Source: Marsupella aquatica (Eukaryota > Plantae > Marchantiophyta). From it: a DNA stretch of 64,000 nucleotides. The stretch's first letter is position 1; each line of letters opens with the position of its first letter. This document shows, piece by piece, positions 11,014-42,949 of the stretch. The stretch lies in contig OZ316891.1 in assembly GCA_973895155.1 (NCBI GenBank), positions 30,511,112 to 30,575,111 of the forward strand, read 5' to 3'. The notes below the pieces were generated by a model that did no database searches, was not told the origin of the DNA, and saw only the letters and a program-made list of their open reading frames with translations. Both the position numbers and the translations under genes were made by a program.

Positions 11014-11357
11014 TGTTGAGCATAGACGACATTCGCAACGGCAAGCCCATGAACCATCCAACGCACAGGAGTCGACACAGAGAGATACGTGGTTCACCTC
11101 CACATGAGGCTACGTCCACGGGAACACACAAGAGCTTTACTGCACTCTAGGCCGACCGGCCATACCAAGCATCCACAGCACAAGCTCTTCCTATCTCTCA
11201 ACTAGCTCCGTAACAATGAGCCTAAGTTCCACCAGGGTCTGGCATCAGCCCTGGCTATATGCACAATAGCACTACCGCTAACATTAGCTAAGTCCTAACC
11301 CGAGCTAGCCTAACTGTAGTTAGCTCATGAGTCACAAGACTAGAGCAATATCTAACA
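11014..11357 (-). repeat. 5' LTR of copia element
   Basis: Direct repeat of 5565-5908. On the minus strand it is followed by AG-TGGTACTCGGCC (PBS). Confidence 0.96.
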
Positions 11358-11634: not shown

Positions 11635-11880
11635 TCCTTCTCCATAAGTGCAGGCATACTCTTGATGGGGTTCTAAACTGAAAAGTGTGGCTTGATAGGG
11701 GTACAAGTTTTGAAATTATCGGGAGGATGTCAAACCAGTCTATTTGAGAATATTCAAAATTTGTGAGTTACAAAGAAAACACTCTCCTCAATTGAACATC
11801 AATTACTCTTGCACCCCCATCACGCTACACTTTTCAGTTCTACACCCCATTAAGCAATTTGCCTTATACTGGTTGAGAGG
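11635..11880. repeat. Degenerate fold-back / MITE-like inverted repeat
   Basis: cttgatggggttctaaactgaaaagtgtggcttgataggggtacaag (~11660) is the imperfect reverse complement of cttgcacccccatcacgctacacttttcagttctacaccccattaag (~11808). Confidence 0.55.
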
Positions 11881-14800: not shown

Positions 14801-15689
14801 TATTTGAATGTTAAGCCTAGATACACCTAGGGTTTGCTATGAAGCGCCCATGGATTTGTCCTTCCCAGAGTGGTAAGTAGTCACTCATGCCCAAATTACT
14901 CAGGGAGTCCTCCTCAAAAGTGAAACATCCATTGGCAATTACTTAGTGTATAATATTTGATCAATTTTGCACTCATAGGCAATGGAGCAAGTTATGTCAA
15001 AAGAATCTGAAACTTTGTCAAGTAAAAGAATGGACATCAGAAATTTGCACTTAAACATAGATCCATAAGTTGTCTAAATAAATGCACTATTTCCCTAAAA
15101 ACCAACATTCTACAGTTTTTAGGAATACCTGGAAAAACTTGGGACGTCCTTCTCATAAATGAAACATCCTTCTAAAGATATCAAGTGAGTATGAATGTTG
15201 GGTGTGAAGTGAAGGACGGCCCATGGAGATGGGAAAAACGACAACCCCCTCAATCCATCATGCTTAAGTTTTAACATAATTTTCTATTCTAGAATTGAAA
15301 TATTTCAAAAACACCAAATTAGACATAAATTCTTAGTAGAATTAAAGTTATAATATAGTCAGTGCAAAACTAAACATACACCGTCCGGTACAAATACAAC
15401 AATGGTACATTTATGAACGAAGTACAGTGATAACACTCAGTAGGAATTAACACTATTGGAGTGTCCACACTAATTACGGAAAGGAGGGTAATTCATGCTT
15501 GCAAAAATAGTGTGACTAACACATTCAGAAGTAGACCCTGAAATTGGCCCTCTCACATTAGTGTGAGTAACAGTAATTAAGGTGTGAACAGTGTAGCGCA
15601 TTGCCAAAGGAAAAAAAAATTGGGAGACTGCATCACAAACAGAGGAGACCCAATCAAGTGCCCCTTAAAGGGGAGAACTCAAGGGAACA

Positions 15690-16850
15690 AAAAATCGGAA
15701 AGGGGAAACTTCCCTAGGTAGTGGCACAATTGGTTTATAGACCTTGAAAATCCCCCTTCTGATTTTTTTTGGTATATAGATTCTTACAGGGGGGGAGAGG
15801 ATCCCAAAAGCACGAGACCCCAAGGTGCCATAAAGCTGAGAAAGGCAGGGAAAATCCTTTCGGAAGAGGAAATTCCTATCCCAAGTGGCACAACTGGTTT
15901 GTAGGTGTTGAAACTCCCCTTCTGTATTTTTTATTTTGTCTCTTCATTCTTATACTGAGGCAGGGCCCCAAATCCAGCACACACTGTATAACATATACCA
16001 CTTGTTACACACATCCCATCATGAGTGCAGACACAAGAGAATGATATAGAAATGGAACAAGAATGGAACTCATGTCCACGAAACCCACAATCACCCCCTA
16101 GCTGGTAGTGAGGTCCCCTAACTCTATCAAGCCATAGTTTCTACCAGGTCAATATACACCTAGTGAAATGAGAAGATCAAGAGGCCAGGTGCAAGTGAGC
16201 CTCATTGATCACCTGCCATTAATACATACGTCAAACTAGTTGGATTCACCGACACAGGCACTGACATTGAGGGCATTGTCTCAGTAATTGAGCCCAATTC
16301 AGTACCACCAATGCACCACAATCCCGTCCAATGCAATCACACTCGTATGTTAAGGCCAATGCATCTTTGCTTCAAGGCATCCACATCACTAACAGCAGGT
16401 CTGGCCACCCACACCATAGCCACCAGAGTTTGTGTGCTTCAAAGGCTCAAAATCAAAAGATGGACTTTCAAGCGGCCACAAATGGATAGCTATCTCTTGC
16501 ACACAAAACTCTAACCACTCACATTATACAAATATAAAATCCCTAAACTTAGATAGCACAATTTATTATCATACTACTCATAATGGTGTGACAAGGAGAA
16601 CACCAAGGGAAAAACCCTTTTGAAAGGGGAAACACCCATAGCAAGTGGCACAACTGGCTTAAAGGCCTTGACTCCACCCCACCCACCCCCAATTCTATAT
16701 GTTTGATTTGTTTGGCATATAAGTTGTTATAGGGAGACAGGATCTCAAAGGCAAGAGACCCCATAAAGTTGAGAGGGCCAAGGAAAACCCCTTTTGAAAA
16801 GGAAAACACACACAGTAAGTGGCACAACTGACTTGTAGGCCTTGAAAACC
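15690..16850. repeat. Four diverged copies of a ~170 bp unit (two tandem pairs)
   Basis: Core agtggcacaaytgry.t.tagg..ttga at ~15720, ~15883, ~16643 and ~16817, each preceded by a gaaa(a/g)gg.aaa motif. Confidence 0.6.
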
Positions 16851-19800: not shown

Positions 19801-21877
19801 GGCAACAACTAAACCAAACACTTTCAAGAATGCATGGAAGAACATGGACTCCTTCCAATTGGACATAGTTTTACCACAGATCCCACCTTGTTCTCATCCC
19901 CAATCTAAGGACAATGGGACCACTGTTGGCCGAGATAGTTAGTCAAATGAGTCTCCCCATGGTTTGACATGTAATTGAGGAACAAACAAAGATAGGTAGG
20001 TATTACGAAGTTTGGGACTACTTGTATTTTAATCTTGATTGAACATTTTACCTACACAGTTTGAAAAGGGGACAGTCAATTTGCCATCTCCTGGAATTAA
20101 CTGTCCGCTTTTGGAATTGACTGTCCCCTTTTCAAATTGGATTTGCCATTCACACACACACCTCTCCAAATCACTGAAGACTGGACTAAAGAAATACCCT
20201 GATGGAAGGTAACAAAACTGTAAGGTGTAGGGTAACCCATCCCCAAGAGGGGGTAGTGGGCTGTAGTCTCCGAGGGTGCTGAGCCCGAGGGGGTTACAAA
20301 CATTTTTCCCAAGTGGGGATGAGTTACCAGACGTGAAGGCTAAGTGAATTTTTACACAACATTTAGTTCAATTTTACACAGGAAAAGTCGGATTTGCCAT
20401 AATTGTCTGCCAATGGCACTTTATTCTGTTTCTCATTCAAATTTCAATATCCCAAGGCTAGACTGGCCCAGGGGTTCTGTGGCTTCACCCAGGGTAATGC
20501 CTTTTAGCCTTGTACACACATACAAAAGGAAAAATTCAAGAAGTATTATGATCACGCCACCTCACAAAAAATACTCACAGAAGGGTAATAAAACAGCAAA
20601 GATATGAGTAATATGACAAGCCATGTGCATGAATAAGTTGCATAGATTCCTTGTGATTCTTGAGACCATGAGGTTCCATTGACCTGGTAGCAACACCTAA
20701 TATAGGAGCGTGAGGTGCATAAACAATGCTATGCATTATGTGTGTAAAAGAAAAGAAATATGACTGTTTATGCTTGCATTGTGTGTGTTTGTACTTTACT
20801 TGTCGGCTGTGAATAAAGCTTCCAACTTCATAAAACAAAATCTAATAATGTAGCCACGTGCATATTGTACACTATTTGAATTTTGCGCACCATGCAATAT
20901 TGTACATATGTTGCTCTGAGTGACCTACCGTAAGGGGCTTTAGCTTAAAGTCACATATTGTCATGCTCCTTCTCTTAGGGGATGGGGCCTGAAAACCACA
21001 TTATAGAGATCCCCAGACCCAGTAGAAGTAGAAACTTCCTGGAATTTGGGTTATTCCACGAGAGAAACTAAGAACCCAACATTCATTCCAAAGTTGGAAA
21101 AGTCCCAAAGGTAAAACCTTGGAATTATACAAAGAATATAAACCAGACTGGTTGTCCTTTAAAAAGCAAACAAACTCTGGAAATGAATGGAGAGCTTGTT
21201 CTTACTTTATAGTTTCGCATTTTTCCCGTTTCCGATGGCTTGTTTCCCGTGTCAGATGCACAATGACATATCCTGTACACGGTTTTCTAATCGCAACTTC
21301 ATTTAATCGGCTTCAAATGATTGTACTTGTGGATCTTAGTCCAAGCTGATGAACGGTCTCCCCCAAAGTAAAACTAAGGAAGTGCGGTACATGGGTTTTA
21401 AAGGCAACAAAAAATAAAATAAGATGAAGTACTCGACAAAAACTACTTGCAAAGTGGTACAAATGAACAGAATGAAATATATAGTAAATTGTTATCCTGA
21501 TCACAAAAGCCTGCTTGAAATATTGAAGTAATAATTTGCAGACAAGTGTAAGCCTCTGACAACTGTTGCTAGCTAAAGGCCAAGATCTAGTTTAGAAGAG
21601 CCACTTTTAGAAACTTGGTTTTAATATTAGGTTTTTGAACTGACGGAAACTCAAAGCAACTTGTACAAACAAGTTGCTTGGAACGAGGTATGGAATTTGA
21701 AATCCTGAAAATTGGGCAGGTGAAATTGTCAGGAATGTTTTGGATTAATAGATAATCTTTGTCCAGCATGTAAACAAGGGTACCCAATATGATATTTGGG
21801 CACATACCTCCTTCCAAATGGGCAAAAAATATAAATAAATGTGGTAACTTGTAGGGGCAGAATGTAAAGCCTGGATG

Positions 21878-22284
21878 GGCCAAGGGTTTGTCTTGCCCAT
21901 ACACATGGACTGCATAAAGTCATCATCCAGTTTACACGGGGAAAAAAGTGACCAACTGCTTTTGGAAGGACGCCTCAAGTTGTCTTTCCAGGTGCCCCGA
22001 CCAACTGTAAATTGCTGGTTATGGCAGACTTCTGCATTTATTTGGACAACTATTGTATTTTTGTTTGATAGGCCAAGGGTTTGTCCTGCCCATACACATG
22101 GACTCCATAAAGTCATCATCCAGTTTACACCAGAAAGAAAAAGTGACCAACTGCTTTTGGAAGGACGCCTCAAGTTGTCTTTCCAGGTGCCCCAAGTTGT
22201 CTTTCCAGGTGCCCCGACCTCGGCCCCTACCAACTGTAAATTGCTGGTTATGGCAGACTTCTGCATTGATTTGGACAACTATTG
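21878..22284. repeat. Tandem duplication, ~190-210 bp x2
   Basis: ggccaagggtttgtc...ttggacaactattg starts at 21878 and again at 22071. Confidence 0.85.
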
Positions 22285-22989
22285 GATTTTTGTTAAAGCT
22301 TAAATTTTGCTATCATGTTCTCTGATATCAAATCTATTACCTAACAAAGTTTGAGATTTTTCTGAGATAAGTAGCTACATTTCCAATGAGCACTAAAGTA
22401 ACTATTTTAAACCAACTTCCAACTAATACTTGATGCCTTGTAGTTTAAGCATAAGCGGAGAATTACCAATTTTTGCAAAGGATGCCCCGAGGAGTTTGGG
22501 CATGAAGGGCTAATTGTCACTTTTGGGAAGAATGCTTCAATTTTGTGAAAGATGTCCTGAGTATTTGGGAATGGCCGTTGAGTACCACTAGTACACTAAA
22601 ATTGAGACTGGCTGCAAATGGTAAAGAGGCCTATTTACAGATCACACTTTAATAGAAATTGGAACAGGTGCTACCCGGGTCTTTAAGGATATCAGTCCAC
22701 TCAAGCTTCAGAAATACATCCGGGCTTCTTACCAAAACCTTTCAGTCCATCGGGCTTCAAAATAAACCCCTCGGTCGATCCCGGTTTGCTTTATAATTAT
22801 AATATGGGTGACATTTTTATAATAATAAATAATAACTATGCTACAGAGATAATGCAAGGGCTACGGTGGGGGCAGGAATGGAGTCCCGGGAACCCGGTTT
22901 AATCTGACGGGCACCTTGACGCCTTGTCGGGCACGTCAAATCGTCAAATGACGGCCCGAAAACATGCAATTTGACGTATATTCCTGAAG

Positions 22990-23525
22990 ATTCTCCCGAA
23001 CGAACCCCGACTTCCCCGGACCTTTTGCGAACACCTCCCGAGCACCCCGGACCTGAACCCGAACTCCCCCTGACCCGAATCCGGACTCCCGGGCCCTTCC
23101 CGGACCCTCCCCGGACCCTCCCGGGCCTTTCCCGGAACCTCGCCGGACCCTCCCCCGAACACTCCCCGGACTCTCGGGCCTTTCCCGGACCCTCCCCGGA
23201 CCCCCACCCGAACCCTCCCCGGACCCCCACCCGAACCCTGCCCGGACCCTTCCGGGGCCGGCCGGGGTAAAGGTGGCCCGGGGGACGGGATTCGGGGAAC
23301 CGGGGACGGGGGGCATTCGGGGAAGAGGATTCGGGGAACCGGGAAAGGGGGGCCGGGATTCGGGGATTTGGGGAACGGGGTTCGGGGAACGGGGTTCGGG
23401 GAACGAGGTAGGGGGTTCGGGGAAGGGGGTTCGGGTAGGGGGTTCGGGGATGCGGGAAACGGGGTTCGGGGAACGGGGTGCGGGGTTCGGGGAACGGGGT
23501 GCGGGGTTCGGGGACGGGGCTCAGG
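22990..23525. repeat. Left subterminal GC-rich repeat block: C-rich (CCCGGACC/CCCGAACC) half followed by G-rich (GGGGTTCGGGGAAC) half
   Basis: Directly visible short-motif arrays whose orientation flips near 23255-23270. Confidence 0.9.
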
Positions 23526-23739
23526 AATTGGTGGCCGGGGAAGAGTTAGAGGCGGGATTAGGGTTAGGGGAGCGAGATTAGGGTTAAGGGAGGCGCAATT
23601 AGGGTTAGGATCAAAGATTAAGAGTTTTAAGAGAGGATAAGAAGTAGATGATTTAGTATAAGTAGGAATAACTAATTCATTTCACTAATCCAAAGTCTCA
23701 TTGTGTTTCTCTCTCTTGTGGTTTAGCATTAGGGAGAGA

Positions 23740-24092
23740 TCGGAGGGATACATTGGAACTCTTGTACGCGCATGCTTTGAGCTCGGCTCGGTCTGCGATA
23801 ATTCGTACGAGAAGTTCCTTATATCGCCTTAACAACTTTGCATCATTGTTTTGTTTGAAAGTGAACTACTTGCGAGTAAAGAGATACCCATGTGCATATG
23901 CTTAGAGCTTTGGCTCGGTCTATGACATTTCATATGGGTATCACGATTTCTCGTACATATGTTCACTTCAAAGATAAACTATTGTGAAGTTATAGATATT
24001 ACATAACATAGGTTGAAGTAGGGATGTTGACAAATATAAGAATTTGGGAAACTTTCCTGCGCATGCTTTGAGCTTAGGCCCAGTCTGTGATA
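23740..24092 (+). promoter_or_regulatory. Left inner arm with three copies of a ~37 bp motif (GCGCATGCTTTGAGCT.GGCTCGGTCTGCGATA) upstream of the transposase
   Basis: Copies at 23764, 23891 and 24058. The segment is an inverted homolog of 33189-33540. A regulatory role is inferred. Confidence 0.5.
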
Positions 24093-24185
24093 ATTCAGGA
24101 AAGTAACCCATTGTACTATATTTGTTATATTCACAAAATCAAAAGAATCAACCCTTTTATTTTTTTACCATTGAGAGTCGTAACA

Positions 24186-27092
24186 ATGTCCGATGAAGAG
24201 GATTCGCATGAAACTGGATATCATTCCACTACTCCTAGGCCTGGTCCAACTCGTGTGCAAGAACACCCTTCAAAACAATCTCCAGTGTGGAGATATTTTG
24301 AACGATGTGATGCGCCTTCAACATGTCATGATGTCAATCGTATCTATCGAAGATGCAAGTATTGTTTAACATACGTTACTCATCATGCAACACGAGCAAA
24401 GGCGCATTTGATGGGAAACATCCAAAAAGGGGATGCGCCCCCTTGCATGCAACTCTATGGTGTCATCGATTTGGATGCCATCAACATTATGTACAATGTG
24501 ATAAAGGTTCCACCGACCTTAAAGTACAAACGACGAGATGGAAGTCATATCTTGCGGGATGTGAGAGGTCGTAGGCCAAGCGTTGGAAGTTCATATTCGC
24601 AAGCATCCACACGAGGGTCAAACTATGTTGACATGGATGATACACATGTAAGGGAAGGAGATAGGCCAGTAAATCTTCCTAACCCAATTATGGATGCCTA
24701 TCAAATTCCAAATAGAACAAATTTGGATAAGCTTTGGGCGAAAGCTTTCTACACCAGTGGTATTCCATTCAATGTTTCAAATAATCCTTTTTTTCGAGAA
24801 GCAGTCATAGAGACTTCAAAAGGGATTGTCAATGGTTATTCTCTACCTACGATGCGAAGTTTGCGATTGAAATTATTGGAAGACAGTAAGGAGGATCTCA
24901 CAAAGGACATGACGCAAACTTTAAAGGAGGCAAAACCTTATGGGTATTCTCTTTCTTCAGATGGATGGGAAAACGTCCGAAGAGAACCTTTGATGAATGT
25001 CATGTTGTTGACTTCTAAAGGTGACTTCTTCTTGGATAGTTGGAATGCTGCGCAAGCTGACAAGAAAGATGGGAAATATCTTGGCGACATGTGGTTGAAA
25101 TACATTGAGGATATTGGTGCAGATCATATTATTCAAATTGTAACTGATGGAGCACCCGCAAATTGCGTAGCAGGTTGTGAGGTAGTCATGAAAAAGTATC
25201 CTCATGTCACTTGGAGCTGGTGTGCTGCCCACGTGTTTAATTTGCTGCTAGAGGATATGTGTGGTCACAAGCGTGTAGTGCTAGATGATGCTGGACAGAA
25301 TCCATTCCAAAAGATTTTTAAACGGTTGAGGTGGATAGTAAAAGCAGTTTCATCATCGCAAAAGCTTTCTGCAATATTTGCAAGAAAATCTCCTGACAAA
25401 AAACTGTTGAATCCAAATGCAACTAGATTTGCGACCAATTTCCTAATGGCACAAAGAGCGTTGGAGCTAAGAGGAGCTTTACAACAGATGGTCATTGATG
25501 ATAATTGGCAGTCTTATCGTGATAGACTTCCATTGCGACCAAAATCAGCTGGACACATGACGAGGGGAAAGGCAGACGAACTTAAAATGTGGATACAGCA
25601 AGATACATTTTGGGTTGAAGTGAAGGATACAGTTAAATTCTTTACTCCGTTGGTCAAGATGTTGCGAGAATTTGATGGTGATTCTCCGCAATCAGGTTGG
25701 TTGTATTGGAGTTTGAAAAGAGGGATTGATATTTTGAAAGCAAGCATGGAGGATTGTCCATTGGTAACAGAGGTATTGAAACCAAAGATACTAAAAGTGT
25801 ATTTGGATCGAAAAAAATATCTTACCACTGATTTCATGCTAGCGGCAGCATATCTCAATCCCCAAATGTTTTTTGATGAGGACATAGATGTCGCTGGAGA
25901 TCCAGAACTCTACAGGGGTTTCAGTGAATACATTGCTAGATATTCAGAACAACAGGTGAAGGAGGGGATCAACCATGATCGCGACGTCAGAGAACTTATT
26001 TCTGCCATCCACAGTCAAGCCATTGACGCCCAAAAAAAAAATCCCAACACATCAATAGCGATGGGAGCTGCCCAATCAAGTATAGGTAATGTCAGTCCAG
26101 CAGAGTGGTGGCATGCGTATGGTGCAGATTATAAACATTTGAGAATCCTGGCGCGAAGAATCTTACACCAAAAAGTGTGCGCATCAGCTTGCGAGCGAAA
26201 CTGGAGTTCGTATGGATTTATACATTCCAAAAGTCGCAATCGATTGACAAATGATCGAGCAAAAGATTTGGTGTTTGTATTTACAAACATGAGGGTAGAG
26301 AAAGGGCTCACAAATGTTCGAAACCCGCATACGTTTATATATGAACGTTATGACCAAAGAAGAAGAACAAATGATGGACCTAGACCTATCTCCATGGAGT
26401 TGTGCAGCAATGAAGAGTACGATGCAACACGTGCGGCTCTTGGTGAAGAAGATGTCGAAGATTATGATACAATTGATGATGCTGATGAATTGCTACACGG
26501 ATTTTCACTGGATAAGGATAGTGAGTTCTTGACTCGTATTCCACCAGATACAGACATCACTGCTGCAGAGGAATGGGAGAATGAAATGGATTTGGAGATG
26601 TATCCTACAATTGATGAATCGCAAATCCAAGACGAGGAAGATGCATCACTGGACAGAAACTTTGTGATGCCTTCCCAACCAAGGTCACCTTGGTCGAACT
26701 TTGCGAATGATGTTGACACAAGCAGACCATATTTCAACGAGCAACGCACAGGCACAGCAGGGCATCCGACGAATGGAAGGACATCAACCTTTTTTCATGG
26801 ATACAACAATCATGAAGGTCAAACTTCAAACGATCCACATGCAAACTGGCAACACCATGCAGGTCCACCCTTGAATGCGTATGCAGGGCCAAGTGTCATG
26901 AATCCATATACGTCGAACAGGCCTATTGGCCTTGGTGGGTTTCGAGGAATATCATCATTTCAAGAAACATCGCACAATGTTCAGTCACACAATCGTGATC
27001 CACTCAGTTGGGGCGACAAACAAGACGAGTGGAATGCGCTTTTGTGCAAAAATCTTAACAACAATGCACGAAATTTCTCTTCACAGCCTTGA
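24186..27092 (+). CDS. hAT transposase (BED zinc finger + DUF659 + hAT C-terminal dimerisation domain), intact, ~968 aa
   Basis: BED: SPVWRYF..CKYC..HHATRAKAHL. Catalytic D in LSSDGW and D in IVTDGA, CAAH motif, TRFATNF, EWWHAYG, and E in ASACERNWS followed by RNRL. ATG 24186 follows a pyrimidine tract and AG. Long acidic/low-complexity tail. Confidence 0.95.
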   Translation: MSDEEDSHETGYHSTTPRPGPTRVQEHPSKQSPVWRYFERCDAPSTCHDVNRIYRRCKYCLTYVTHHATRAKAHLMGNIQKGDAPPCMQLYGVIDLDAINIMYNVIKVPPTLKYKRRDGSHILRDVRGRRPSVGSSYSQASTRGSNYVDMDDTHVREGDRPVNLPNPIMDAYQIPNRTNLDKLWAKAFYTSGIPFNVSNNPFFREAVIETSKGIVNGYSLPTMRSLRLKLLEDSKEDLTKDMTQTLKEAKPYGYSLSSDGWENVRREPLMNVMLLTSKGDFFLDSWNAAQADKKDGKYLGDMWLKYIEDIGADHIIQIVTDGAPANCVAGCEVVMKKYPHVTWSWCAAHVFNLLLEDMCGHKRVVLDDAGQNPFQKIFKRLRWIVKAVSSSQKLSAIFARKSPDKKLLNPNATRFATNFLMAQRALELRGALQQMVIDDNWQSYRDRLPLRPKSAGHMTRGKADELKMWIQQDTFWVEVKDTVKFFTPLVKMLREFDGDSPQSGWLYWSLKRGIDILKASMEDCPLVTEVLKPKILKVYLDRKKYLTTDFMLAAAYLNPQMFFDEDIDVAGDPELYRGFSEYIARYSEQQVKEGINHDRDVRELISAIHSQAIDAQKKNPNTSIAMGAAQSSIGNVSPAEWWHAYGADYKHLRILARRILHQKVCASACERNWSSYGFIHSKSRNRLTNDRAKDLVFVFTNMRVEKGLTNVRNPHTFIYERYDQRRRTNDGPRPISMELCSNEEYDATRAALGEEDVEDYDTIDDADELLHGFSLDKDSEFLTRIPPDTDITAAEEWENEMDLEMYPTIDESQIQDEEDASLDRNFVMPSQPRSPWSNFANDVDTSRPYFNEQRTGTAGHPTNGRTSTFFHGYNNHEGQTSNDPHANWQHHAGPPLNAYAGPSVMNPYTSNRPIGLGGFRGISSFQETSHNVQSHNRDPLSWGDKQDEWNALLCKNLNNNARNFSSQP

Positions 27093-27333
27093 AGCATCTT
27101 TTCATTAGGATAATATCAAGTGTTGCTACTCTTATATTGTCGTATCTGACATAGACAAAATTATAAACAATTATATTTTTTGTAACATGATTGTATTGTC
27201 TTGCAGTGTGTTTATTATTGTACAATGATTGAATAATTTATTTGTATTTGCATTTGAGAATGTCATAGAGACACACCAACGCAACATGTTTTCCAAATCT
27301 CCAACACTGACTATTTCAAAGTACCTTGTTGTT

Positions 27334-28654
27334 GGCCATAGCAGCCGTAGTCCATACCAGCCCCCTCCATTAATTGGTTAGTTCATTTCACTATGCGAAG
27401 ATTTAGTCCAGCAATAGAGCACCGTCATATTCAATAATAATGAGGTCGAGAGGACCTCATTATTGGACCTGAGAATGTCATTGCTTGAATAAACCTTCTC
27501 GTAATAAAATAAACTTAGTTGAACTTGAAGTTGTAATGAGGGCCCATTTTTGGGGTGGGTGAATGTCGTTGACCGTAGCAGCTGCACTACTTGAAGTTGG
27601 GCAGAGTTTATATGACTATGAGAGAAGTTGTGAAATGAACACATCGCCTACATAATCAGTAACCTTCTCATAATCATATAAACCCCGTTCAACTTGAAGT
27701 TGTAATGAGGGCCCATTGGTGGCCAAGGAGAGCAATGTCATGATGATGATCAGACACGGTCACGGGGATTCCGCAAGATCGGTCACCAAATTGATATGCA
27801 GACGCAAAATACAGTCACCAATTTCAAGTCAAAGTTCACCCGTTTATATCCTCTCCTGTCCGAATTCCAATTCGAGCTTGGACACCCTCTCGTCAGCAGG
27901 TCTCCACCCTTTCAGTTGCTCCTCACGCGAACCTCTGGATTCCTCAAACACTATGAATGATGCATTGAAATAAAATAGGTTCGAGGATTCTAGAGACTGC
28001 TATCTTGGTTTGCGTGAAGAGCAACTGCAATGGTGGAGACCAGCTGACGAGAGGATGTCCAAGCTCGAATTGGAATTCGGAAAGGAGAGGATATAAACAT
28101 GCAATTGTGCGAATTAATGTCATAGGCCGTAGCAGCCGTACTCCAGTAATTGGTCAGTTCATTTCATTATCAGAAGATTTATTCAAGCAACGGAGCACGG
28201 ACATATTCAATAATAACAAAGTTAGGAGGACCTGAAATATTGACCTGAGAGTGCCATTGCTTGAATAAACCTTCTCATAATGAAAAAAACTCTGTTCAAC
28301 TTCAAGTTCTAATCAGGGCCCATTTTTGGGGTAGGCAAATGTAGAGGCGTTGGCCTCGGTTTGCATGCGCATGAATGTCATTGGTCGTAGCAGCTACGCT
28401 ACTTGAAGTTGAACAGAGTTTATTTGAGTACGAGAGAAGTTGTGAAACCAACGGATCGATGACATACTCAGTAATTTTTTGCTCGAAGGACCTGAAAATT
28501 TGACCTGAGAGTGCATTTGCTTTCAGAACTTCTCTCGTACTCAAATAAACTCCGTTCAACTTCAAGTTGTAATGAGGGCCCATTTTTGCGGTGGGCAAAG
28601 GAGTAGGCGTTGGCCTCGGTTCGCATGTGCATGAATGTCATTGGCCGTAGCAGC
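27334..28654. ncRNA. Putative hairpin-RNA / miRNA-like cluster: five long stem-loops, four of them homologous ~260 bp units
   Basis: Stems 27380-27415/27480-27515, 27589-27629/27661-27700, 27842-27933/28007-28098, 28162-28193/28254-28285, 28401-28451/28517-28567. Shared linkers GGCCGTAGCAGC and TAATGAGGGCCCATT. Expression is not shown. Confidence 0.55.
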
Positions 28655-29159
28655 AATAGCGGAAAAAATTATGAAAGACAGGAAAAGTGAGTGGACTTAG
28701 GTATACATCCTTCTACAAAATCATTCTCAACTTGGGCGGCTAAAACCATTGCGATGTTGACTTTGTTGAACTCATTGTGCTACACGATCTCCTTTTGGAA
28801 ATGATTTCAGAGAAGGATCAGTACCTGAGTCCACTGTGCTACCGTCTCTCATCACGTCTATTTTCCTCATACTTGTCCAAAAATATGATTGTGAGCCCGA
28901 CAATATGCTTCCAAAACCTATGGCTGATTGGAGGATGGAATATTCTTACGAAAATACACATTCTCCAAAAGGCGACGCCATGCCCCCAATGAAAAATATA
29001 TGTACTCAACGAGATATGCAATGTAATGTCACTCCAAAATCTCTTTACCAATTACAAGTTGAAAATAATTGTCAAAGAGGATATGCCGCTTCTATTTTAA
29101 CAAAATGTCTCTAATAGTAACTACATGAAAATAACATCAAAATGTAGAGACTATTGGTT

Positions 29160-31118
29160 TTAGTTCCTTTTGTTGTTATTGTCAACAGCTTCTGTTTTCA
29201 CCTCTGCCTGTTGTTGACGTCGTCGATGGCGCCGAATGGATCGTTGCAAATTTTGCTCATCTATTGATGGCTGGTTGGCTGCCGCATATTGTTTCCACTC
29301 ATCGAGTCGACCACTGAATAACAACCTGTCAAATTCCCCATCTGACAAATTATATTCATTGATTGTGAAATGTTCAATGGGAGTTTCATCTATTTGCATC
29401 GCCGGTATAGTATCTTCAGTCATATCTTCAGTCATATCTTCAGTGTTTTGTTGAGTCTCCATTGATGGCATTTGCTTCAACAATCCTCGTTGCTCATACT
29501 CGCGTTCATGAAATGGTGTGCGACACCAACATTTTCGGCTTTTCTTCAACCATTTAGACAAGCAAGCATGATGCCATATATGACCGCAGGTTTCCAACAT
29601 GGAAACACATTCAGGGCCCCAAGGATATAGGCACCAAGTACACTTGTCATCCTTTTCACGAACAAATGCTGCCATAGTTTCATCCTTTTTCCACTTATCA
29701 AAAAACCTATCAATACCTTCCGCGTCAACCTCCACATCTGGAAAAAGGTTGCTGTGCCCTGTAGGATCTATGATTTGCATGTTAACAAAATTTGGCGACG
29801 ATAATTCACCTTGCCCTTTGTTTGACCTCATCCCCAAAGCACCATTGTTAAATTCTTGCACCTCTTCGTGAAGATTTGATATGATGATTGCTTGCGTTGC
29901 AAGTTCACTTTTAAGATCATTAATGATCTTGTCCTTCTCCTCAAGTCGTGCCAGTTCATTGCATTGACGCTCTTTTTTAGCAAGTTGTTTTGTCAGCTTA
30001 TTGATTTCTTCCATCTTGTCAAATAATTGACACTTGTACAACATCACTTCCGAATTGGTCGTTGGCTCGTTCTGCTTCTTCTCAAGTGATCTCATCTTTA
30101 TATCAGCTTGTTGCAATTGTGACTTGAACTTTTCGATGCTGCCACATTCACATAGCTCCACTACATACTTCATGCGGAGATTTGTCTCAATCACCTCTGC
30201 AACATCTGCCCCCAAGCTCTTGCATATGTTGTGCAGGTTGAACTTATCCTTGTTAGCATCAGTAACATTGTTGTTCTTTGCATGTGGAGTTCTACTCCCA
30301 ACACCTACAAGGATTGGTTTTTTGGTGTGCATTGACTCCACATTGGTTGGTGGTGCTGCACGGTCAGGCATGGAGACTCGAGGAAGTACAGCCATTTTCC
30401 CCTTCTCATGCGCATATCCCTCCCCAGTGTCATCTAGCTTTCTTTTGGATCCCTTGTTGGAAGTCTCCATTGAAGGGTCCTTTGCAATAGTTGTATTCCT
30501 ATTCATTGCAATCGCAACCACTGATGGATGCACCTGATGAGTCAACTTGCCAGCACTGTTTTCCCAACGGTAATCCACCTTCCACTTGAGAATGAATTCA
30601 GCAATCAGACATCGGATAAAAGGAGGGTAAACGGAACTCATTTTCGTTTGGGCTTTGTGTGGAGCAAACTCTCGATATCGTTGCTGCCAATGTGATTTAA
30701 CACCTGCATGTGTTACTTTGGACATGGTGAATTTTTCTTGCGCCCATGATCTTGTTGCCCAAAGATCCGGATCGTGAAAAACTTGTTGTGCTAATGGCCA
30801 AAAGTCTTTCTTTGGCATCAACATCTCCAATTCCTTTGCATTCATGGCCCATTCGTCATGGGGAGGATTTACATTGGGCGTTAATATACTCCATTCATCC
30901 TTCATACCCTCATCTTCCCATCTTCTTGCGTTTGGCGCCGGTGTTCCATCAACCTTGGGTTTAGCCTCATAGTGAATGCCAATGGTTGTAAGATTATCCA
31001 ACACATTATTACGAAGAGCTTCATCGTCACAATAGGATCCTTGACCATCTTGCATGGTAAGATGTTGTGTCGTGAACTCTTTGTCTTCATCATCAGAAGA
31101 CAATTCCCATCGTCCCAT
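29160..31118 (-). CDS. Transposon cargo protein: unknown N-terminal domain, basic NLS-like patch, coiled coil, C-terminal RING-H2 finger (putative E3 ubiquitin ligase), ~652 aa
   Basis: Uninterrupted 669-codon ORF with first ATG at 31118. RING-H2 pattern CTWC-x14-CGHIWHHAC-x10-CWC; heptad-rich E/K/Q segment; KGSKRKL. Confidence 0.85.
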   Translation of the reverse strand: MGRWELSSDDEDKEFTTQHLTMQDGQGSYCDDEALRNNVLDNLTTIGIHYEAKPKVDGTPAPNARRWEDEGMKDEWSILTPNVNPPHDEWAMNAKELEMLMPKKDFWPLAQQVFHDPDLWATRSWAQEKFTMSKVTHAGVKSHWQQRYREFAPHKAQTKMSSVYPPFIRCLIAEFILKWKVDYRWENSAGKLTHQVHPSVVAIAMNRNTTIAKDPSMETSNKGSKRKLDDTGEGYAHEKGKMAVLPRVSMPDRAAPPTNVESMHTKKPILVGVGSRTPHAKNNNVTDANKDKFNLHNICKSLGADVAEVIETNLRMKYVVELCECGSIEKFKSQLQQADIKMRSLEKKQNEPTTNSEVMLYKCQLFDKMEEINKLTKQLAKKERQCNELARLEEKDKIINDLKSELATQAIIISNLHEEVQEFNNGALGMRSNKGQGELSSPNFVNMQIIDPTGHSNLFPDVEVDAEGIDRFFDKWKKDETMAAFVREKDDKCTWCLYPWGPECVSMLETCGHIWHHACLSKWLKKSRKCWCRTPFHEREYEQRGLLKQMPSMETQQNTEDMTEDMTEDTIPAMQIDETPIEHFTINEYNLSDGEFDRLLFSGRLDEWKQYAAANQPSIDEQNLQRSIRRHRRRQQQAEVKTEAVDNNNKRN

Positions 31119-31305
31119 GTTTGCGATGTGTACAAAAGGTCTGCGATATTTGACAATGTACAAACACATTTAGCACAATTTTGGGCATTCACGACAAAGT
31201 TTGATAGAATATTATCAACAAAATGCAGAACATTGTAATTGACATACAATGAATAAACATATAATCGTTAAGGTGACCTTTACAAAATTGTGTAAACCCT
31301 AATCT

Positions 31306-32961
31306 CTAATCTCTAAGATATGGACTGTTGTGCAAATGCAATGTGCAATCTGGAAACGTTCGAACTATCTTCAAACTCCAATAAGCACAATCCATTCTTT
31401 TCTTGGCATCTGTGGCCATCATTTCACGGATTATGACATCCAATTTGGGGCCATGCACTTGTGCACTCCAACCCCTCCCCAAAAACCGTGAACCCTTAGA
31501 CATTCCATCCCAATTCTCTGTCAACAATGTCTCAAAAATATTCCCCAAAGCATATATATCGGTACTTTCACTAAACTCGACAGGGGTAGGTTGAACAAGC
31601 TCCGGAGCCAACTGTGGAAATTGTTTTTGGTATGTTGCTGCTTTTTCTGTTGCTGTGGGCCACATCCGATTAGCTGGTAATTTGCACTATGATTTATGCT
31701 TAGACAAGCCAAAATCACATAAACCAACATACACCTTAATAGCCACATCGTGCTCGTGATCGAAATGAAGAAGGATGTTTCCAAAGTGAAGATCACAATG
31801 AAATCGATCATGCTCATGCAAGTATTACAATGTCTCCAGCAAAGCCAAGGCGATTCCCAACCGGTTCTCCAACAAGAGTTTCTTCTCCGAAATAAACTTG
31901 AAATCAAGGTCCGTCGTGATCTGTGCCTTCCCCTTGCTCTTTGACGATATGCCGCACTTATCAATAAAGCTACCCAAGTCACCTCCATTATAGTGATCGT
32001 AAATAAGTTTTGGCGGATCCTCAATAGTCAACGCAAGAGCTCCAACGATTCCCTTATGATTCAGTCCTCCCATAAGCACTTCTTGTAATGTGTCAGTTTG
32101 TCTCTTATGCTTGTCTCCATCCTTGAACCGCTTTGCGACTAAGGTCACGTTGACGGGAATGAGAGGACAATATAATATACGATAAGTGTATACCTCTCCT
32201 TGGATTCCTTTCCCAATGCGACGTGTGTTGTGCACCTGCTCAGGTTTAAGAAAATGGATACTCCTAACCTCTGGAACTACACGCGATGGACGTGTTCCTT
32301 TTCGAGCACTTTTGATGCTGACATCCCCAAAGTGCACAATCTCGTTAGCATATTTGACATTGCTATCAGATTTTGCCATTGCCAACTCCTTACTCCACTT
32401 CACTAGCAATTCTCTCTTGTGTGTGTACATCCCGGGGTTTCCAAGCAATGTAGTGTCACCCTCTTCCACTTTGGCTGCCAAATTATCCCAAACATGCTTC
32501 TCCAAGTTGAGTGCCAAATTTTCCAGAAATCCTCCCGGTTTCTCAGTTTCATCTTCAAATGACTTCATTTGCTCTCGTGTGAAATTGTCCTCCTTTTGTA
32601 CACTTTCCCGCATACAACGGGTTATCTCACCAAGAAAGTTCTTGTATCCTTTCTCTCCGTGTCTTGTGAACTCCCTCTCGAACCCGTCCACCCCATACTG
32701 TTTCGGTTGAGTGTAGCGATAAAGTATCTCTTTCCATATCGACACTACCACATTGTGTCGAACCTGTTTTGCCTCTTCGTTTGCCCCCTTCCGTTTTCGT
32801 TTCCCGGCCACTTTGCTAGAATTCCTAGCATGTTCGAGAGTGTTTCGAGCGTTCTTCAATGCATCCAGAGCAACAAGATTCGGCTCATATCCCTCATTCA
32901 CATGTTTTGTGATCATCTCCAACACTTGCCTATACTCTAAACTAAAATTTTCGATGACCAT
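31306..32961 (-). pseudogene. Transposon cargo Ser/Thr (TKL-like) protein kinase with two in-frame nonsense codons
   Basis: One frame reads IGKGIQGEVY (G-loop), VAKRF, QEV, HKGIV, YNGGDL, LETL*YLHEHDRFHCDLHFGNILL, LCDFGLSKHKS*, LAPEL, TDIYALG. The stops TAA (31825-31827) and TAG (~31687-31689) are consistent with CAA/CAG C>T changes. Confidence 0.88.
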
Positions 32962-33188
32962 GTTTTCCCTTCACAAAAGGAATATGTGAGGGAGGAACAA
33001 GATCTTACCGGGATTTAAATAAAATCCTTCCAATAAGGATTCAACGACCAACCTGAAAATTACAAGTCGTATTGTTATTATCTTTTCCCGGTTTGTTTCT
33101 CCCATGCATTATGTATTTTTATTGCACACATGATTTTAATTACCTTTCTATATAACAACAATAAAAGAGAAAGACAACACTTGTGAAA

Positions 33189-33540
33189 TATCGCAGACCG
33201 AGTGGACGCTCAAAGCATGCGCACAAAAGTGTTCTTTTCTTTCAAAGTTGTTATATTCCTGCTTCGACATATGTGATTTGGTGTCTATAACTTAACACTC
33301 ATTTGTAATTCAAGTAAAAACATTCTCGGCGAATCGTGGTATCCATGCAAAGTATCGCAGACCGAGCCGAAACTCTAAGCATGCGTACATGGATTCCTCT
33401 ATCTCCGCAAATGTTTTACTTAATGAACAAAGGAGACTAAATTGTTAAGGTGATATTAATAAATTCTTGTACGGAGTATCGCAAACCGAACCGAGGCTCA
33501 AAGCGTGCGCGTACAAGTGTTTCTTTATATCCCTCCATTT
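33189..33540 (-). promoter_or_regulatory. Right inner arm with three copies of the same ~37 bp motif, upstream of the kinase
   Basis: TATCGCAGACCGAGCCG..CTCAAAGCATGCG at 33189, 33353 and 33477, the reverse complement of the left-arm copies with mirrored spacing. Confidence 0.5.
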
Positions 33541-33653
33541 GGCTCTAAGGTTAGGGTTTAAAACACAAAAAAAACTTAAAAAATCACAAAACAAAACACA
33601 AACAAATAAAAACAAACCAAAAATCAAAAATAAAAACCAAAACCAAACACTTA

Positions 33654-33797
33654 CCTCCTCCTCCTCCTCTTCTCCTCCTCCTCCTCCTCCTCCTCTCCTC
33701 TCCTTCTCCTCCTCCTCCTCCTCTTCTCCTCCTCCTCCTCTCCTCCTCCTCCTCCTCTCCTCTCCTCCTCCTCTTCCTCCTCTCCTCCTCTCCTCCT
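33654..33797. repeat. (CCT)n / CT-rich microsatellite
   Basis: Directly visible imperfect CCT array. Confidence 0.95.
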
Positions 33798-33919
33798 TTC
33801 TGCAAAACCGAAAATGAGGAGGGAGAGGAGGGATCTCCTCCTTTTATCCTCTCCCGAGCCCCCGACCCTTTCCCGGCCGGCCCCATCCTCCAACCCTAAA
33901 TCGCGAAACCCTAATTCTC

Positions 33920-34400
33920 TGAGCCTCAATCCCGAACCCCGAACTTCCAAACCCCGAACCAAACCCCGAACCGGACCCCGAACCCCGAACCCCGATCCCC
34001 ACCCGGACCCACCCCGGCCTCCCGGACCCGAACCCCACCCGGACCCCACCCCGAACCCCCACCGAGCGCCTCCGCCCCGGGCCCGGACCCCACCCGAACC
34101 CCCCGTACCTCCCGAACCCGAACCCCTCGGACCCGGACCCGAACCCCACCCGGACCCCCACCCGAACCCCCCGCACCTCCTCCTCCCGGACCCGAGCCGC
34201 ACCCGGACCCCACCCCGAACCCCCACCGAGCGGACCCGAACCCCACCCGGACCCCACCCCGAGCCCCCACCGAGCGCCTCCGCCCCGGACCCGGACCCGA
34301 TTAGTCACCCGGACCCCCACCCGAACCTCCTCCCGAACCTCCTCCCGAACCCGAACCCCGAACCGGACGTTTCCTTTCCCGGACTGCTTCCGAACCCGGG
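33920..34400. repeat. Right subterminal GC-rich repeat block (CCCGAACCC/CCGGACCC)
   Basis: Directly visible; the motifs are reverse complements of the G-rich block at 23270-23525. Confidence 0.9.
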
Positions 34401-36314
34401 TGCCGGGTTGTCAATTTGCCGCTCTCAAACGCCCAGTTTGACGGGCAAGGTCAAACCGGGCCCGGGAATGGAGTGCGGCATAGCACTGTACCATTGTACG
34501 TAGGTACAGGACTGTCCTGTAGTAATCATCGTAGTGGAATGCACGTACGTACCATCCTACGGTATGGTATGGTATCACTGTAGTCTGTAGTCTGTAGCCC
34601 TGTCGGAGACGTTTGCGGGCGCGTCCACTTGTCCAGTTTGATCCGTGTAAATAAAGGTGAACAGGTGACCACGTAAGTTCGTGCAGTTACTGGCGGTAAG
34701 TTTTTCGTGCAAGTTGCAATTGGCATCAATTGGGCGCGCTCTCGTCTCATCGCCCCTTCGCCCCCTGCGCCCCGCCTTCTCGCCTGTCGTCCAGTCCGGT
34801 GCGCCCCCTCCTCCACTTCGGCCTTTTTGCTCGCTCAGCACGTCGACGCTCATTCTCGTCCGACGATGATGATTTTGCTCGCGAAATCATCGAGCAAACG
34901 AGTAGAGTGGTGAGGCTGGAGTGCGCTCTGCCAGCTCGCGTTGAATGGGGATTGATTCGTCGTTTTCGACGGATTGATGACTGCGGAATCCGTGGGGGTC
35001 GCTCCAACGCCGGGAGGAATTTTTTTGGCGCCACTTCGGATGCTGCAGAGCGCAGTTTGACGGCGGATAGGCGCGTGAGGGCGAGTGTGGTTGTGAAATG
35101 GGGTGCTGATGGATGGGTGGAGGTTGGGAATTCCGTCTGTTTGGATTGTGTGTTTGGATGGGTTGATGCATTTTGGGGAGCGTGCCTGACCGGTCCAGCA
35201 GGGATGGTGGTGGGAGGGTGGAAGCTGTCTTGACTGAGTGACTGAGTGACTGACTATTTTGATGCTGTAGGATCGTTCTTGAGTGCGGATTGTCGTTCAC
35301 TTCGGCGAGGGGGGTGAGCTCGCGAGCGAGTTGATGATGCTGCAAGACGGCTGCTGTGAAGAAATGAAGATGCATTGGTGCTGATGTGGGGATTTTCATG
35401 TCCCAAGGTTGTTAGTTCATGGATTCCGTCCTATAGTAGATCACAGAAGCGGTGGCATTGCTTGACTGGAATGGCGATGAGATTCGAGCTCGGATTATAA
35501 GAGTCTGGCAGGCGTTGCTGTGAGCTGTCGGCGGTAGTCGTAGCTGTAGCTGTTAACGTCGGGATTTTTAAAATCCAGCCAGCCGACTCTTCATTGGTCG
35601 ATAGTTTTGCAGGTTGGAATGATGGATGGTGATACCTACTGTTGAGATCAGCTGTCCCTAGGAACCATTTTGCCGAAGGATCAAGCTGCACTTAGTCGGG
35701 GGTTGAACAGGTTGGTAGGGAAGAGTGTATGCAGGGCTCAAAGGAGGTTCTGCTCGTGTTACTTCCAGTAATCGTTTTCTCCTGCATTCCTTCGGAGTCG
35801 ATGTCAGCTGTCTAGCAGCGTTTACAGCGGACGGTGTTGGTGCCAAAACGTGGATGGGGACGTTTGAAAGTGCTGAAAGGCGGCTATCAAAGATGTGGAT
35901 GGGTGAGGATCGTTAACATCAACTGGAGATGGTTCGCTGCTGATGCATCTGTTTGCTTGAGGGGAGGAGCACCCGATGTTATTAGTGTGTACTGTCATCG
36001 CCATTTGGTCTCGGCTTCCAACCAGGTGAAGTGGAAATGGACATATATCATGGACTGGAAAGTTACAAAAGTTTGTCAGGGAGGAATCCGGTCACATAGT
36101 TAGGGCAGCCAGCCTCCTGGGATTGGGAGGGAGGGTGATTGGGTCGAAGGAAGAAAGGAGGGGTACATGGCGATGGTGCTGGAAGCGATGTGCGGTGGTG
36201 AGGAGACGGGGCTCTGTGGTATTTTAGGACTATGTGGTGGTGGTCAAGCAGTATGTATCAGAAGGGGGGAGACACCGTTTCCCGGATGAGCGGGAGGAAG
36301 ATTTCACGGCGGGA

Positions 36315-39300
36315 ATGGAAGGGCTGCGCGGGGTGGTGCCGTCATGCTGCCCCGGGGTCCCAGGAGTCTTGATCGGCTCAGCGCTTTCAGCAGGCAGTGG
36401 AAGGTTCCTGCACAATGCATTCGTGCTGCCGAAGGACCAAGTTGAGGTGATTAAAGACCAAAAGGAGATTTTGCTCCGTAACAACAGTGACCATGCGGTG
36501 CACATTCCTTCAGATCAGGAAGGCGGCCCTGACCACCACCACTCTAGTAACGGGAAGGATTCCGCAGGTGATTCCACAGGTGACGATGAAGATGAGGATG
36601 GAACCAAGCCACAGGGGTGCACTGGAAGCTGTCACTGCCAGTTACAGCTTCCCGGAATGGCCTGCATTCGGAGAGTTGGAGGACGTATCGTCCAGGGCAT
36701 CGTGTGGGATCCACTCCTTACCAAGCGGATCTTAGTCATGGTACATCCGCTTCACCTCAAATTTCGCATTTGTCCTCTCAACCATTCAATAAGCCATTGC
36801 AGGTGAAAAATTCCTCGATTTGTCTCTAACCATTATCTCCCCAACCTGCTTGAATATAACTGCACGCTACAGTTCGGCCCAATCGCATGCCGCGACCAAG
36901 CAACGTTTAGACCGTGCTGTTGTCGAAATGGGGAAAGATCGCTCCTTTTGTCTGTTAAAGTGAGATATACCCCTTTGTGTTGACTTTCGCTCGGAATCCC
37001 TGTCATTCAATCTACGGAGGACGGTGATTCCGGATTGATTATTGTTCCGGGCGCCGGGGTCTTCTCCCTAACTTAGCCAGCTGAACTGAGAAATCCATCT
37101 CGTCTGGCGAACGGAGCCAGCTGCAGTAGAATTGAGATTACAGGTCGGAGACGGCGTGTATGTGTAGACTGTGCACGAAGCGAGCCCAAAGTGGCCGATT
37201 TCTGCTGTCTTTCGAGGAGAATGCCTAACAACAGCTCGAAGCCCACGGGGTGAATACGCGTGTGACTGTTCTCACGTGATTAGATCTAGGAACACGTCGG
37301 GATCGTATAAGGAATTTGAATATGTAATAGTTTTCTAGCCGGAATCCGCCCCATGGTTCTGTGCGGCGGACGGAATCACACTTCTGTGGTCTTTTGAACG
37401 TGTCTGTTCCGATTCCCTCGTCTTTTCTCTCCGGCAAGTCATCACTTGTCCAGAGATCACGGCAATCACATACAGATTGATGGTGTACCTCCACAGTTGC
37501 GGTTATCCGTAACTTCTTCGTCGAAACCATCTGACTGAATTAGTGTCATGTTTATCCCAATGGCGGAGTCGTTTATCGTGCAGCCGAGGGATTCTTAGCC
37601 TTGTTTTCGTTTTTCTGGCTAAGTATGGAGTTTGTATGGCATGATTTTGTGGAGAAGTCACGTTGACCCGTCAATTTCATTCACTTACTTAAATGTCATG
37701 CACGTGCCGGCAACGCAGGTTATTCTCGCAATCATTATAACGACGATGACTGTACTGACGTGGTATTTCTCAATAAAATATACTGAAAGGTCAGTCGGTA
37801 TTGTTGCGGATGCTTTGCGGAACAACCTAGTCGAAAGAGCGGATGCTACCACCAATGCACTCCTTCGGAATGTTAATTTATCATCCACAGCGTTGGCAAG
37901 GCTCCTGAGTTCACCGCTCATTCCTGGCAATTATTCGTCATTTACGACGTTGGAAGAGCAGGTTGGTGCATTGCTGTTGCCCTCCTCACTACCGGCGTTC
38001 TTATTCAATAATGTGAAGCTGTATGAAATTCTGTGTTTCAGTTCCTTATCATAGTTGTCTGAAAGTTACGACTCTGCGTTTGATCATGTCTCAAAGCTTC
38101 CGTCCGATGAAAGCTCTGTTGACATCTTGAAGGATGTTCAATATGTCCCTGATGATCGGACACAGTTCTACATTATTTAGAAAAGATACGAAGGAGAGTG
38201 AGAACCTAGGAAATCTGTTGAAAACTGGAACAGTTCTTTAACACTACTTAGAAAGATGCCAAGCGGAATGAGAATCTAGGATATAGGATCGCTGAAGACG
38301 TCTTCTCTTTTTCTTTTGTTGCATGAATGCTTACTATGGAACTCATACGTGGGGTTTTGCGTCAGGTGAGGCCAATTCTTTTCTCGGCATACTCGGTCAT
38401 TCCTAACAAAAATCTGGTTTCCTTCTTTGGGAAAAATGGATTATGTATCGCATATACATCGGAATTTGGCGGTGCATCAATGAGTTTTGCGAATTTCACT
38501 TACCTTCATCCGGAGGTAAGCAACACCTCTGCTGTCCCCGCGGACATTCCGTGGAGAACAGGGGAAAATCTAAGGGTAACTCGCCCGTGGTATAAATGGT
38601 ATCGGCAGTCAGCAGATATTTCAACTGGATTGCCAACTGGAGCAGCGAGTTCCATATCACCGATACCATATTGGGCAGAAAATATTTTTAACAACACCTG
38701 GAGTACAGGACAAGCAGATTCGTGGGGGTTATTATCATCGCAAAGCAATGATCTTTTTATCCTCTCCTTGTCAGCCGTGAAGCAGGAGTCCGATTTAGAT
38801 GCAGTCGGTGTTGCTGGAGTCGGGTTTTCCGTTTCTGAGATAGGCAAGTTGATCGATGACATCAATGTCGAAGGAGGAGACATATATGTCACCACTGTAG
38901 ACGGAAAGCTACTGGTTCAGACGAAAGTGCCAGTCAATTACGAAATTGATAGTAAGCTGGGAACTCCATTGCTGCCCAGCGCTGCCATGTCCAACAACTC
39001 AGTGGTGGAAGGGGCTGCGAGATATTTAGCTTCAGTCCCCGGTAGAAATGCAACACAATCGTATCAAGCGAATAACGTCAAAATTGGGGGAAGAGATTAT
39101 GTGCTGAACAGCTCTCCTGTTGAGATTTCGCAGACCACCTTGGTAACAAATCCCGAGCTTGTAATTTTTTTCATTCTGCGACAACTATCGATATGGCTTA
39201 TGTGTAATACGATGACTGGGACTTTGTCTGTTCCTAGTGGGTGACGAATGTCCAGACTGACAAGGGATTATAGAGTTTGCGGGTAGTTTTTTTGGATTAA

Positions 39301-42300: not shown

Positions 42301-42949
42301 TGGGAGTCTTAGGAGAGTCAGAAGTATCTCAAGGGATCAGATCGAAGAAGAAAATCCGCCTCTTACAAAGCGACCCTTCGACATGGTTCTGATGGATTGT
42401 CAGGTGAACACTCTTATCGTCGTTATCTACGGACTGTCGTGAAGCTCCTCTCTTTGCGTTGAGAATCCAACATGTCCATTTTAGTTAGAATTATTGTGGA
42501 GCATAGACTTAAAATTTAAGTTCTCGAGAAGTTTGTAAGACTATAATTTACGTCCTATCTGCTCTGTGTCCAATTACACTCCAAAGATTTGTCAGACCAC
42601 GATTTTTTGTTTGCTTTTGGACTGGATAAGGTAGGATTGAACGTGTCTTGCAATAGATCTGTGATGTGCTCCATAACTCTTACCCGTTGCGGTCTAACGC
42701 GAGTGTTCTTCGATCTGTGCTCAGATGCCCGTGCTTGATGGATATGGAGCGACCCAACAGATTCGAGAGCAGGAGAAGCTTTTAGGATGGCGCACACCTG
42801 TTATCGCCCTCACTGCGCATGCAATGTCGAAGGATGAGAGCAAGTGTATAGAAGCAGGCATGGATTTTTACCTTACCAAGCCCCTTGCCACCAAAGCCTT
42901 GCTGACTGTGGTGGCCAGGATAAATGCCAATGCAAACAAGCAGAGCTAA
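36315..42949 (+). CDS. CKI1: CKI1-like membrane hybrid histidine kinase; exons approx 36315-36802, 37584-37617(?), 37719-37961, 38366-39142, 39378-39753, 39995-40593, 40898-42403, 42725-42949
   Basis: Two TM segments flank an extracellular domain. HisKA FASMSHDLRTPLAAILG; HATPase NLLSNGVKFT, VDDTGKGI, FVQVD, GGTGLGLGIV; degenerate receiver-like domain; receiver ILVAEDN..LMDCQ/MPVLDG..ALTAHAM..YLTKP. Splice phases are consistent from 37719 onward. The 5' exons are less certain. Confidence 0.88.

Follow-up and report, generated by a model that had tools for sequence, protein, structure and literature searches.

A hAT transposon of the liverwort Marsupella aquatica carries an array of five hairpins that are candidate small-RNA precursors

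Results

Structure and gene content of the hAT element

We analysed a 64-kb window (64,000 nucleotides of contig OZ316891.1, forward strand), to which all positions refer. The window contains an 11.6-kb hAT DNA transposon (22885-34466, no strand assigned), recognised by its target-site duplication, terminal inverted repeats (TIRs) and transposase domains. An identical 8-mer flanks the element on both sides (22877-22884 and 34467-34474), and beside each copy of this 8-mer lies a short imperfect TIR starting with CCCGGG; both the 8-bp duplication and the short TIRs are features by which hAT membership is judged. GC-rich subterminal repeats were found at both ends. The intronless transposase gene (24186-27092, plus strand) matched DUF659 (E 4.7e-30) and Dimer_Tnp_hAT (E 1.9e-10), both over the curated Pfam cut-offs, which identifies its product as a hAT transposase. 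Besides the transposase, the element carries a RING-finger gene and a protein kinase gene, and diverged relatives are known for all three. An initial annotation of this DNA had placed a transposon-borne array of hairpins between convergent transposase and RING genes, and the array indeed lies inside the element, between the facing 3' ends of these two genes, 240 nt downstream of the stop codon of the transposase gene and about 500 nt downstream of that of the RING gene. The comparison with CACTA elements drawn at that stage did not hold for the element type, which is hAT, and the kinase has to be added to its gene list as a second cargo gene.

A 14-bp motif was present in two copies upstream of the transposase gene (23768 and 24059; 23768-24072, minus strand) and in three more, in inverted orientation, upstream of the kinase gene (33209, 33373 and 33497). 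Six matches were counted for 0.31 expected, five of them inside the element. These five copies are mirrored at the two element ends and are candidate binding sites or a candidate shared promoter module.

The RING gene (29160-31118, minus strand) encodes a conserved N-terminal domain, a middle part predicted to be coiled-coil-like, and a RING-like finger that matched zf-RING_2 with E 6.9e-5, under the curated Pfam cut-off. A word-based search returned two full-length matches, one of them from the liverwort Calypogeia fissa (50%), and its relatives comprised 20 representatives with E values no higher than 1e-10. The N-terminal domain (residues 55-205) had a confident predicted fold (pLDDT 85.8) with no match among PDB structures (best Foldseek E 0.86; best VIA Z 2.9), a result that does not show the modelled fold to be new. 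The kinase gene (31306-32961, minus strand) has eight relatives with 46-72% identity and is interrupted in this copy by two in-frame stops (31825-31827 and 31687-31689). At 31825-31827, nearly all of the contig depth in four of four public runs had another base, so this stop is apparently peculiar to this copy or to the assembly. Further searches gave no loci for the RING protein in metagenome contigs (81 candidates), and none for the kinase alignment in prokaryote genomes (5 candidates) or viral contigs (116 candidates).

Several other features were recorded in the window. A Copia LTR retrotransposon (5565-11313) has 300-nt terminal repeats that are 99% identical and in-frame stops in its polyprotein. 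A host hybrid histidine kinase gene (38300-42442), with HisKA, HATPase_c and weak receiver matches, lies downstream of the hAT element. Repeat families of 42-74 nt, dispersed or in tandem, occur also at 3782-4917, 15684-16845, 21874-22294 and 47623-47913. The stretch 28770-29114 (plus strand), which separates the array from the RING stop, is a 114-codon stop-free frame with no Pfam match, and within it 29049-29063 is a 15-nt imperfect complement of the scaffold of the array units.

The array consists of four homologous hairpins and an unrelated fifth

Four hairpins of the array, U1 to U4, are homologous units, and they are followed by a terminal stub of the same scaffold that forms no hairpin, as judged by sequence and folding (28636-28654). 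No strand was assigned to any hairpin. U1 (27334-27560) has arms at 27378-27415 and 27480-27517, with 29 of 38 positions in Watson-Crick pairs, and a perfect 12-bp terminal stem in its loop. U2 (27571-27716) has lost its loop and pairs 27586-27629 with 27661-27703 (35/43 Watson-Crick, one bulge). The arms of U3 (28125-28365), at 28156-28193 and 28254-28291, pair at 33 of 38 positions, and those of U4 (28383-28625), at 28399-28451 and 28517-28569, at 49 of 53. The unit starts given in the initial annotation (27334, 27571, 28125 and 28383, with the stub at 28643) were all recovered, as were the arm sequences that it quoted for the second and fourth units, the pairing of 28401-28451 with 28517-28567 (51 nt at 94%) and the three mismatches between 28162-28193 and 28254-28285, which fall at 28171, 28177 and 28191. 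Two points had to be amended: the units are not all about 260 bp long, U2 being about 175 nt and without a loop, and they do not all end alike, U3 ending in TAATCAGGGCCCATT instead. U1-U4 and the stub share a 62-nt right-arm and tail segment with 82-85% identity (repeat family D3), and the left arms fall into two types, U1/U3 and U2/U4.

Such a repeated scaffold could suggest that the array serves as DNA to which a protein encoded by the element binds, as with the VANC motif arrays found in VANDAL transposons, which are Mutator-like elements whose short motif arrays are bound by protein. The constant scaffold occurs four to five times, one cargo protein has a domain without a fold match, and a GCATGCGC core is present both at 28363 and in the subterminal motif. 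We nevertheless regard this explanation as highly unlikely: the five 14-bp subterminal motifs are better candidate binding sites, and binding arrays need no stems of 40-90 bp.

Between U2 and U3 we found a fifth hairpin, X (27842-28098; arms 27842-27933 and 28007-28098, 85/92 Watson-Crick), which the initial annotation had overlooked. It is unrelated in sequence to U1-U4 and a far stronger hairpin than any of them. Its MITE-like size and long inverted arms raise the question of whether the hairpins are relics of nested MITEs inserted into the hAT element, MITEs being a known source of plant hairpins (PMC10004981, PMC9641971). This origin is very improbable, because X has no flanking target duplication in the flanks read by eye, no unit of the array has a copy elsewhere in the 64-kb window (best BLAST E 2.5), and in other copies of the element the X arms are joined to the U scaffold.

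Each hairpin is predicted to fold independently, beyond chance

Folding energies were compared with those of 40 dinucleotide shuffles on both strands. The z-scores (plus/minus strand) were -2.3/-5.4 for U1, -2.9/-5.7 for U2, -4.8/-7.5 for U3 and -7.7/-11.5 for U4; X reached about -19, and the stub did not fold (+1.1/-1.8). The minus strand, which is the sense strand of the RING gene, gave the stronger score for every U unit, a weak pointer from these models to RING-sense RNA. Among 246 tiles of 260 nt covering the window, the five tiles over the array ranked 1, 2, 5, 6 and 10 by minimal folding energy index (MFEI). X and U4 had MFEI values of -0.92 to -1.32 and U1-U3 of -0.66 to -0.78; against the rule of thumb of -0.85 for miRNA precursors, U1-U3 are weaker. 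When the whole 1.4-kb array was folded, five self-contained stem-loops of plant pre-miRNA size were predicted on either strand. Pairs within units dominated this fold on both strands (plus strand: X 104, U4 85, U3 69, U1 55 and U2 51; largest number between units, 19). The claim that each unit folds on itself was thus borne out, the stub excepted, and the hairpins of the array are real, beyond chance.

The stems measure 38-92 bp in fold-backs of 175-270 nt (n = 5). A filter for miRNA-duplex geometry (21-nt duplex, at most 5 unpaired bases, small asymmetry) was passed in the predicted folds by 20-87 21-mers per strand in each unit, so that all five hairpins passed on both strands.

None of the seven matches of the array to known RNA families reached the gathering score in Rfam, the best having 33.4 bits for a threshold of 120 (MIR2599). 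When all 21-mers from the stems were compared with the rest of the window, 20 sites had a score of 5 or better; the best of these, at 4.0, pairs the U1 left arm with 23673-23693, antisense to the transposase strand. None was better than 4. We treat these 20 sites as probable chance matches, and no convincing target was seen within the window. A captured gene as the origin of the stems was not found either. Comparison of 17 array peptides with Pfam gave one sub-threshold match, the X-arm peptide (one reading frame) had no PDB match and 0 of 17 candidates among longer proteins, the U-arm peptide profile had no match in PDB, and the six frames of the array did not match the element's own proteins or their relatives. 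In these protein-level searches, which are weak ones, no host-gene source was detected. One reading frame of the U stems gives a short peptide reminiscent of ARID-domain helices; this reading was dropped because the codon-structure test gave p 0.23.

Co-variation between arms is real and confined to a short tract

The initial annotation had stressed that both arms change together between units. This is real at four of the 21 stem columns common to all four U units, where double Watson-Crick changes occur, and is smaller than was implied. All four columns fall within 8 consecutive nucleotides. Pairwise counts of double changes among U1-U4 were 1, 0, 0, 2, 2 and 3, and one of the three that separate U2 from U4 passes through a C.A mismatch in U2. 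The best-scoring partner of the left arm was its own right arm in two of the four units (U3 and U4); the U1 left arm preferred the right arm of U3 (48 vs 44.5), and the U2 left arm that of U4 (73 vs 53).

According to PMC8794818, compensatory changes of several bases can arise by template switching, which can also keep stems intact. Clustered in one 8-nt tract, the double changes have the pattern expected of this process in the absence of selection on RNA, and one such event could have produced them all, so DNA-level switching stays compatible with them. Co-variation, real as it is at this handful of aligned columns, is by itself no proof of selection on RNA. The hairpins might accordingly be selectively neutral DNA palindromes, an inverted repeat that was tandemly duplicated and in which template switching keeps the arms alike and rearranges the modules. 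Besides the clustering of the double changes, this explanation is favoured by the 12-bp terminal stem of U1, which is perfect although each of its two strands differs from U3 at several positions, and by the lack of a distinct G.U strand bias. Arm mismatches read as G.U 14 times on the minus strand and 4 times on the plus strand (p 0.03); after homologous sites had been merged by eye the count was about 10 vs 4 (p 0.18), and eight control inverted repeats, including isolated MITE-like repeats of 39-61 nt at 11661-11854, 52725-52973, 62776-63324 and 63433-63752, leaned the same way (17 vs 11), so that the bias of the array is not above that of the controls. Against neutrality, some mismatches persist in two or three units and were not converted away, such as the A.C column common to U1, U2 and U3. 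A single trace read in run X5 had 1 change among 86 stem positions and 5 among 65 loop positions (p 0.085). The X arms show apparent mirror variants (27883-27885 vs 28055-28057), which we left out of the compensatory changes since contigs derived from either arm align to both.

Parts of the array are kept and re-ordered in diverged copies of the element

Other copies of the element were sought in contigs of public sequencing runs (X1-X7), with summed contig depth as a crude proxy; a contig from one hairpin arm can align to the other, which affects the depth over X and the U arms. Four runs (X1-X4; two organism labels, two studies) contained 85-91% of the words of the array and covered 30 of 30 bins of 23700-33600 by near-identical plus diverged contigs. 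Run X5 yielded 3 records and X7 yielded 1, most of them single reads of near-identical sequence, while X6 yielded 13; none of these three runs was counted as an independent species. Among the eight run entries listed as carrying the array, none is recorded as RNA, which speaks neither for nor against transcription. In metagenome contigs the array pattern had no loci. The array was seen at >99% identity under two organism labels and in two studies (27111-28721; 0-3 differences per 465-1604 nt), which may point to closely related species, to a labelling problem or to a recent transfer. A unitig of 1604 nt, with 3 differences, joins the transposase end to X. Near-identical unitigs of run X1 had depths of 183-243, and the listed diverged pieces 16-19; this is a weak hint of a young subfamily of roughly ten copies, depth not being copy number.

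Contigs of run X2 with a likeness of 80% or more showed an excess depth of about 1000-2600 over 27874-27977, 28030-28081 and 28134-28237 (base 426), of 200-600 over a number of bins in spacers and flanks, and of 0-40 over U2, U4, the U1 loop and 27302-27353. The bin 27926-27977, among the best-shared, is mostly loop in this copy. This pile-up on X and the U3 left arm indicates that parts of the non-coding DNA of the array are kept across diverged copies, X being the most widely common part, and its pattern suggests that the family as a whole has X and the U3 left arm, U2 and U4 being either of recent origin or quick to change. The initial annotation had named absence of the array from other copies as evidence against its reading; X and the U3 left arm are present there, and U2 and U4 are not common to the diverged copies. 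At loose ends and joints of the contigs, the X right arm was linked with the left arm of U1 and U4 with U2; in addition, a U-type spacer came after the X loop, and a shorter X arm ran directly into a U3-type start. These junctions show, at the level of contig sequence, that the modules were re-ordered among copies of a multi-copy family.

This pattern bears on neutrality in two ways. The confinement of U2 and U4 to a near-identical subfamily in run X2 is expected of neutral palindromes; X and the U3 left arm, by contrast, are at least 80% alike in diverged copies and the neighbouring non-coding bins are not. On balance we find it rather unlikely that the array is neutral.

The exchange of modules among copies also fits a role in cis, in which the hairpins would be an RNA structure at the convergent 3' ends that ends or blocks read-through and so prevents silencing-triggering dsRNA from an overlap of transposase and RING transcripts, discrete small RNAs being unnecessary. 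The position of the array shortly past both stops and its folding on both strands are in agreement with this proposal. The AT-rich, TGTA-rich tracts after both stops, however, already resemble ordinary plant 3' ends when read by eye, and diverged copies share the sequence of the arms and not their pairing alone. Furthermore, long near-perfect RNA stems are themselves Dicer substrates. A purely cis-acting structure is hence, in our judgement, a minority possibility.

Discussion

We propose that the array is a transposon-borne cassette of small-RNA precursors, a reading to which we give about even chances. It rests on the position, size and independent folding of the hairpins, on the retention of their sequence across diverged copies, and on the organisation of MIR genes in bryophytes. 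The likeness to a miRNA or hairpin-RNA polycistron pointed out in the initial annotation therefore stands for precursor size, duplex geometry, self-pairing and the parts common to diverged copies; it is weakened for the double changes, which in their one 8-nt tract fit DNA-level switching too.

If the array is such a cassette, U1-U4 probably arose by tandem duplication of one hairpin. The array would be transcribed by read-through from one of the flanking genes or from a promoter of its own, and a Dicer-like enzyme would process its five fold-backs to small RNAs. Short template-switch events may keep the arms matched, with selection on the duplex then preserving the outcome. Through dicing, the read-through RNA of the element itself would be cleaved, and guides able to act at other sites might be set free.

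That these guides act in trans against host silencing is a doubtful extension, built on the analogy with miR820 and on the company of the kinase and RING cargo. It is likewise improbable, although worth stating, that the element carries a virus-like counter-defence package in which a kinase and a RING ligase, the latter having one domain whose fold is unmatched, are combined with an extendable and re-shuffled set of small-RNA precursors; the varying stems would then track host silencing genes, and the array would be a swappable guide cassette evolving between subfamilies.

In the literature that we searched (titles and abstract openings, mostly outside subscription journals and supplementary miRNA tables), no hAT element with a hairpin cassette was found, nor one with transposase, RING and kinase genes together, and the transposon-encoded anti-silencing miRNA found there was rice miR820, a single hairpin. 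A multi-hairpin cassette whose modules differ between subfamilies and which travels with conserved kinase and RING cargo would make it possible to test directly if transposons maintain and trade sets of small RNAs that are aimed at the host or at the transposons themselves. The three-gene hAT element is itself of note even if the hairpins are neutral.

Among the systems closest to this array is miR820, a working miRNA carried by a DNA transposon, the CACTA elements of rice (PMC3459959). Both systems have a fold-back inside a multi-copy DNA transposon. In rice, miR820 has one precursor per element, derives from and targets OsDRM2, and was shown to yield 22- and 24-nt RNAs. The present element is a hAT with five hairpins that belong to two kinds, for which we found no RNA among the listed runs, no target in the window and no source gene at the protein level. 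VANDAL transposons with VANC (PMC5735166, PMC10398659) are likewise DNA transposons that contain additional cargo genes and in which non-coding motifs are repeated. They differ from the present element, a hAT with RING and kinase cargo and long stem-loops. Hairpins maintained by template switching (PMC8794818) resemble the array in that compensatory changes of several bases lie close together within a short stretch; template switching is a mechanism of mutation and not a function, and it fits functional and neutral readings alike. In Physcomitrium patens, 25% of miRNA hairpins are polycistronic, and bryophyte miRNA hairpins often overlap protein-coding loci, according to sections of PMC9291395. 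Such loci resemble the array in having several stem-loops in a row, near or overlapping protein-coding units; they are not described as transposon cargo in those sections, and the array matches no Rfam family. If functional, the array would work like miR820 or like a polycistronic MIR locus, and yet could be filed as neither.
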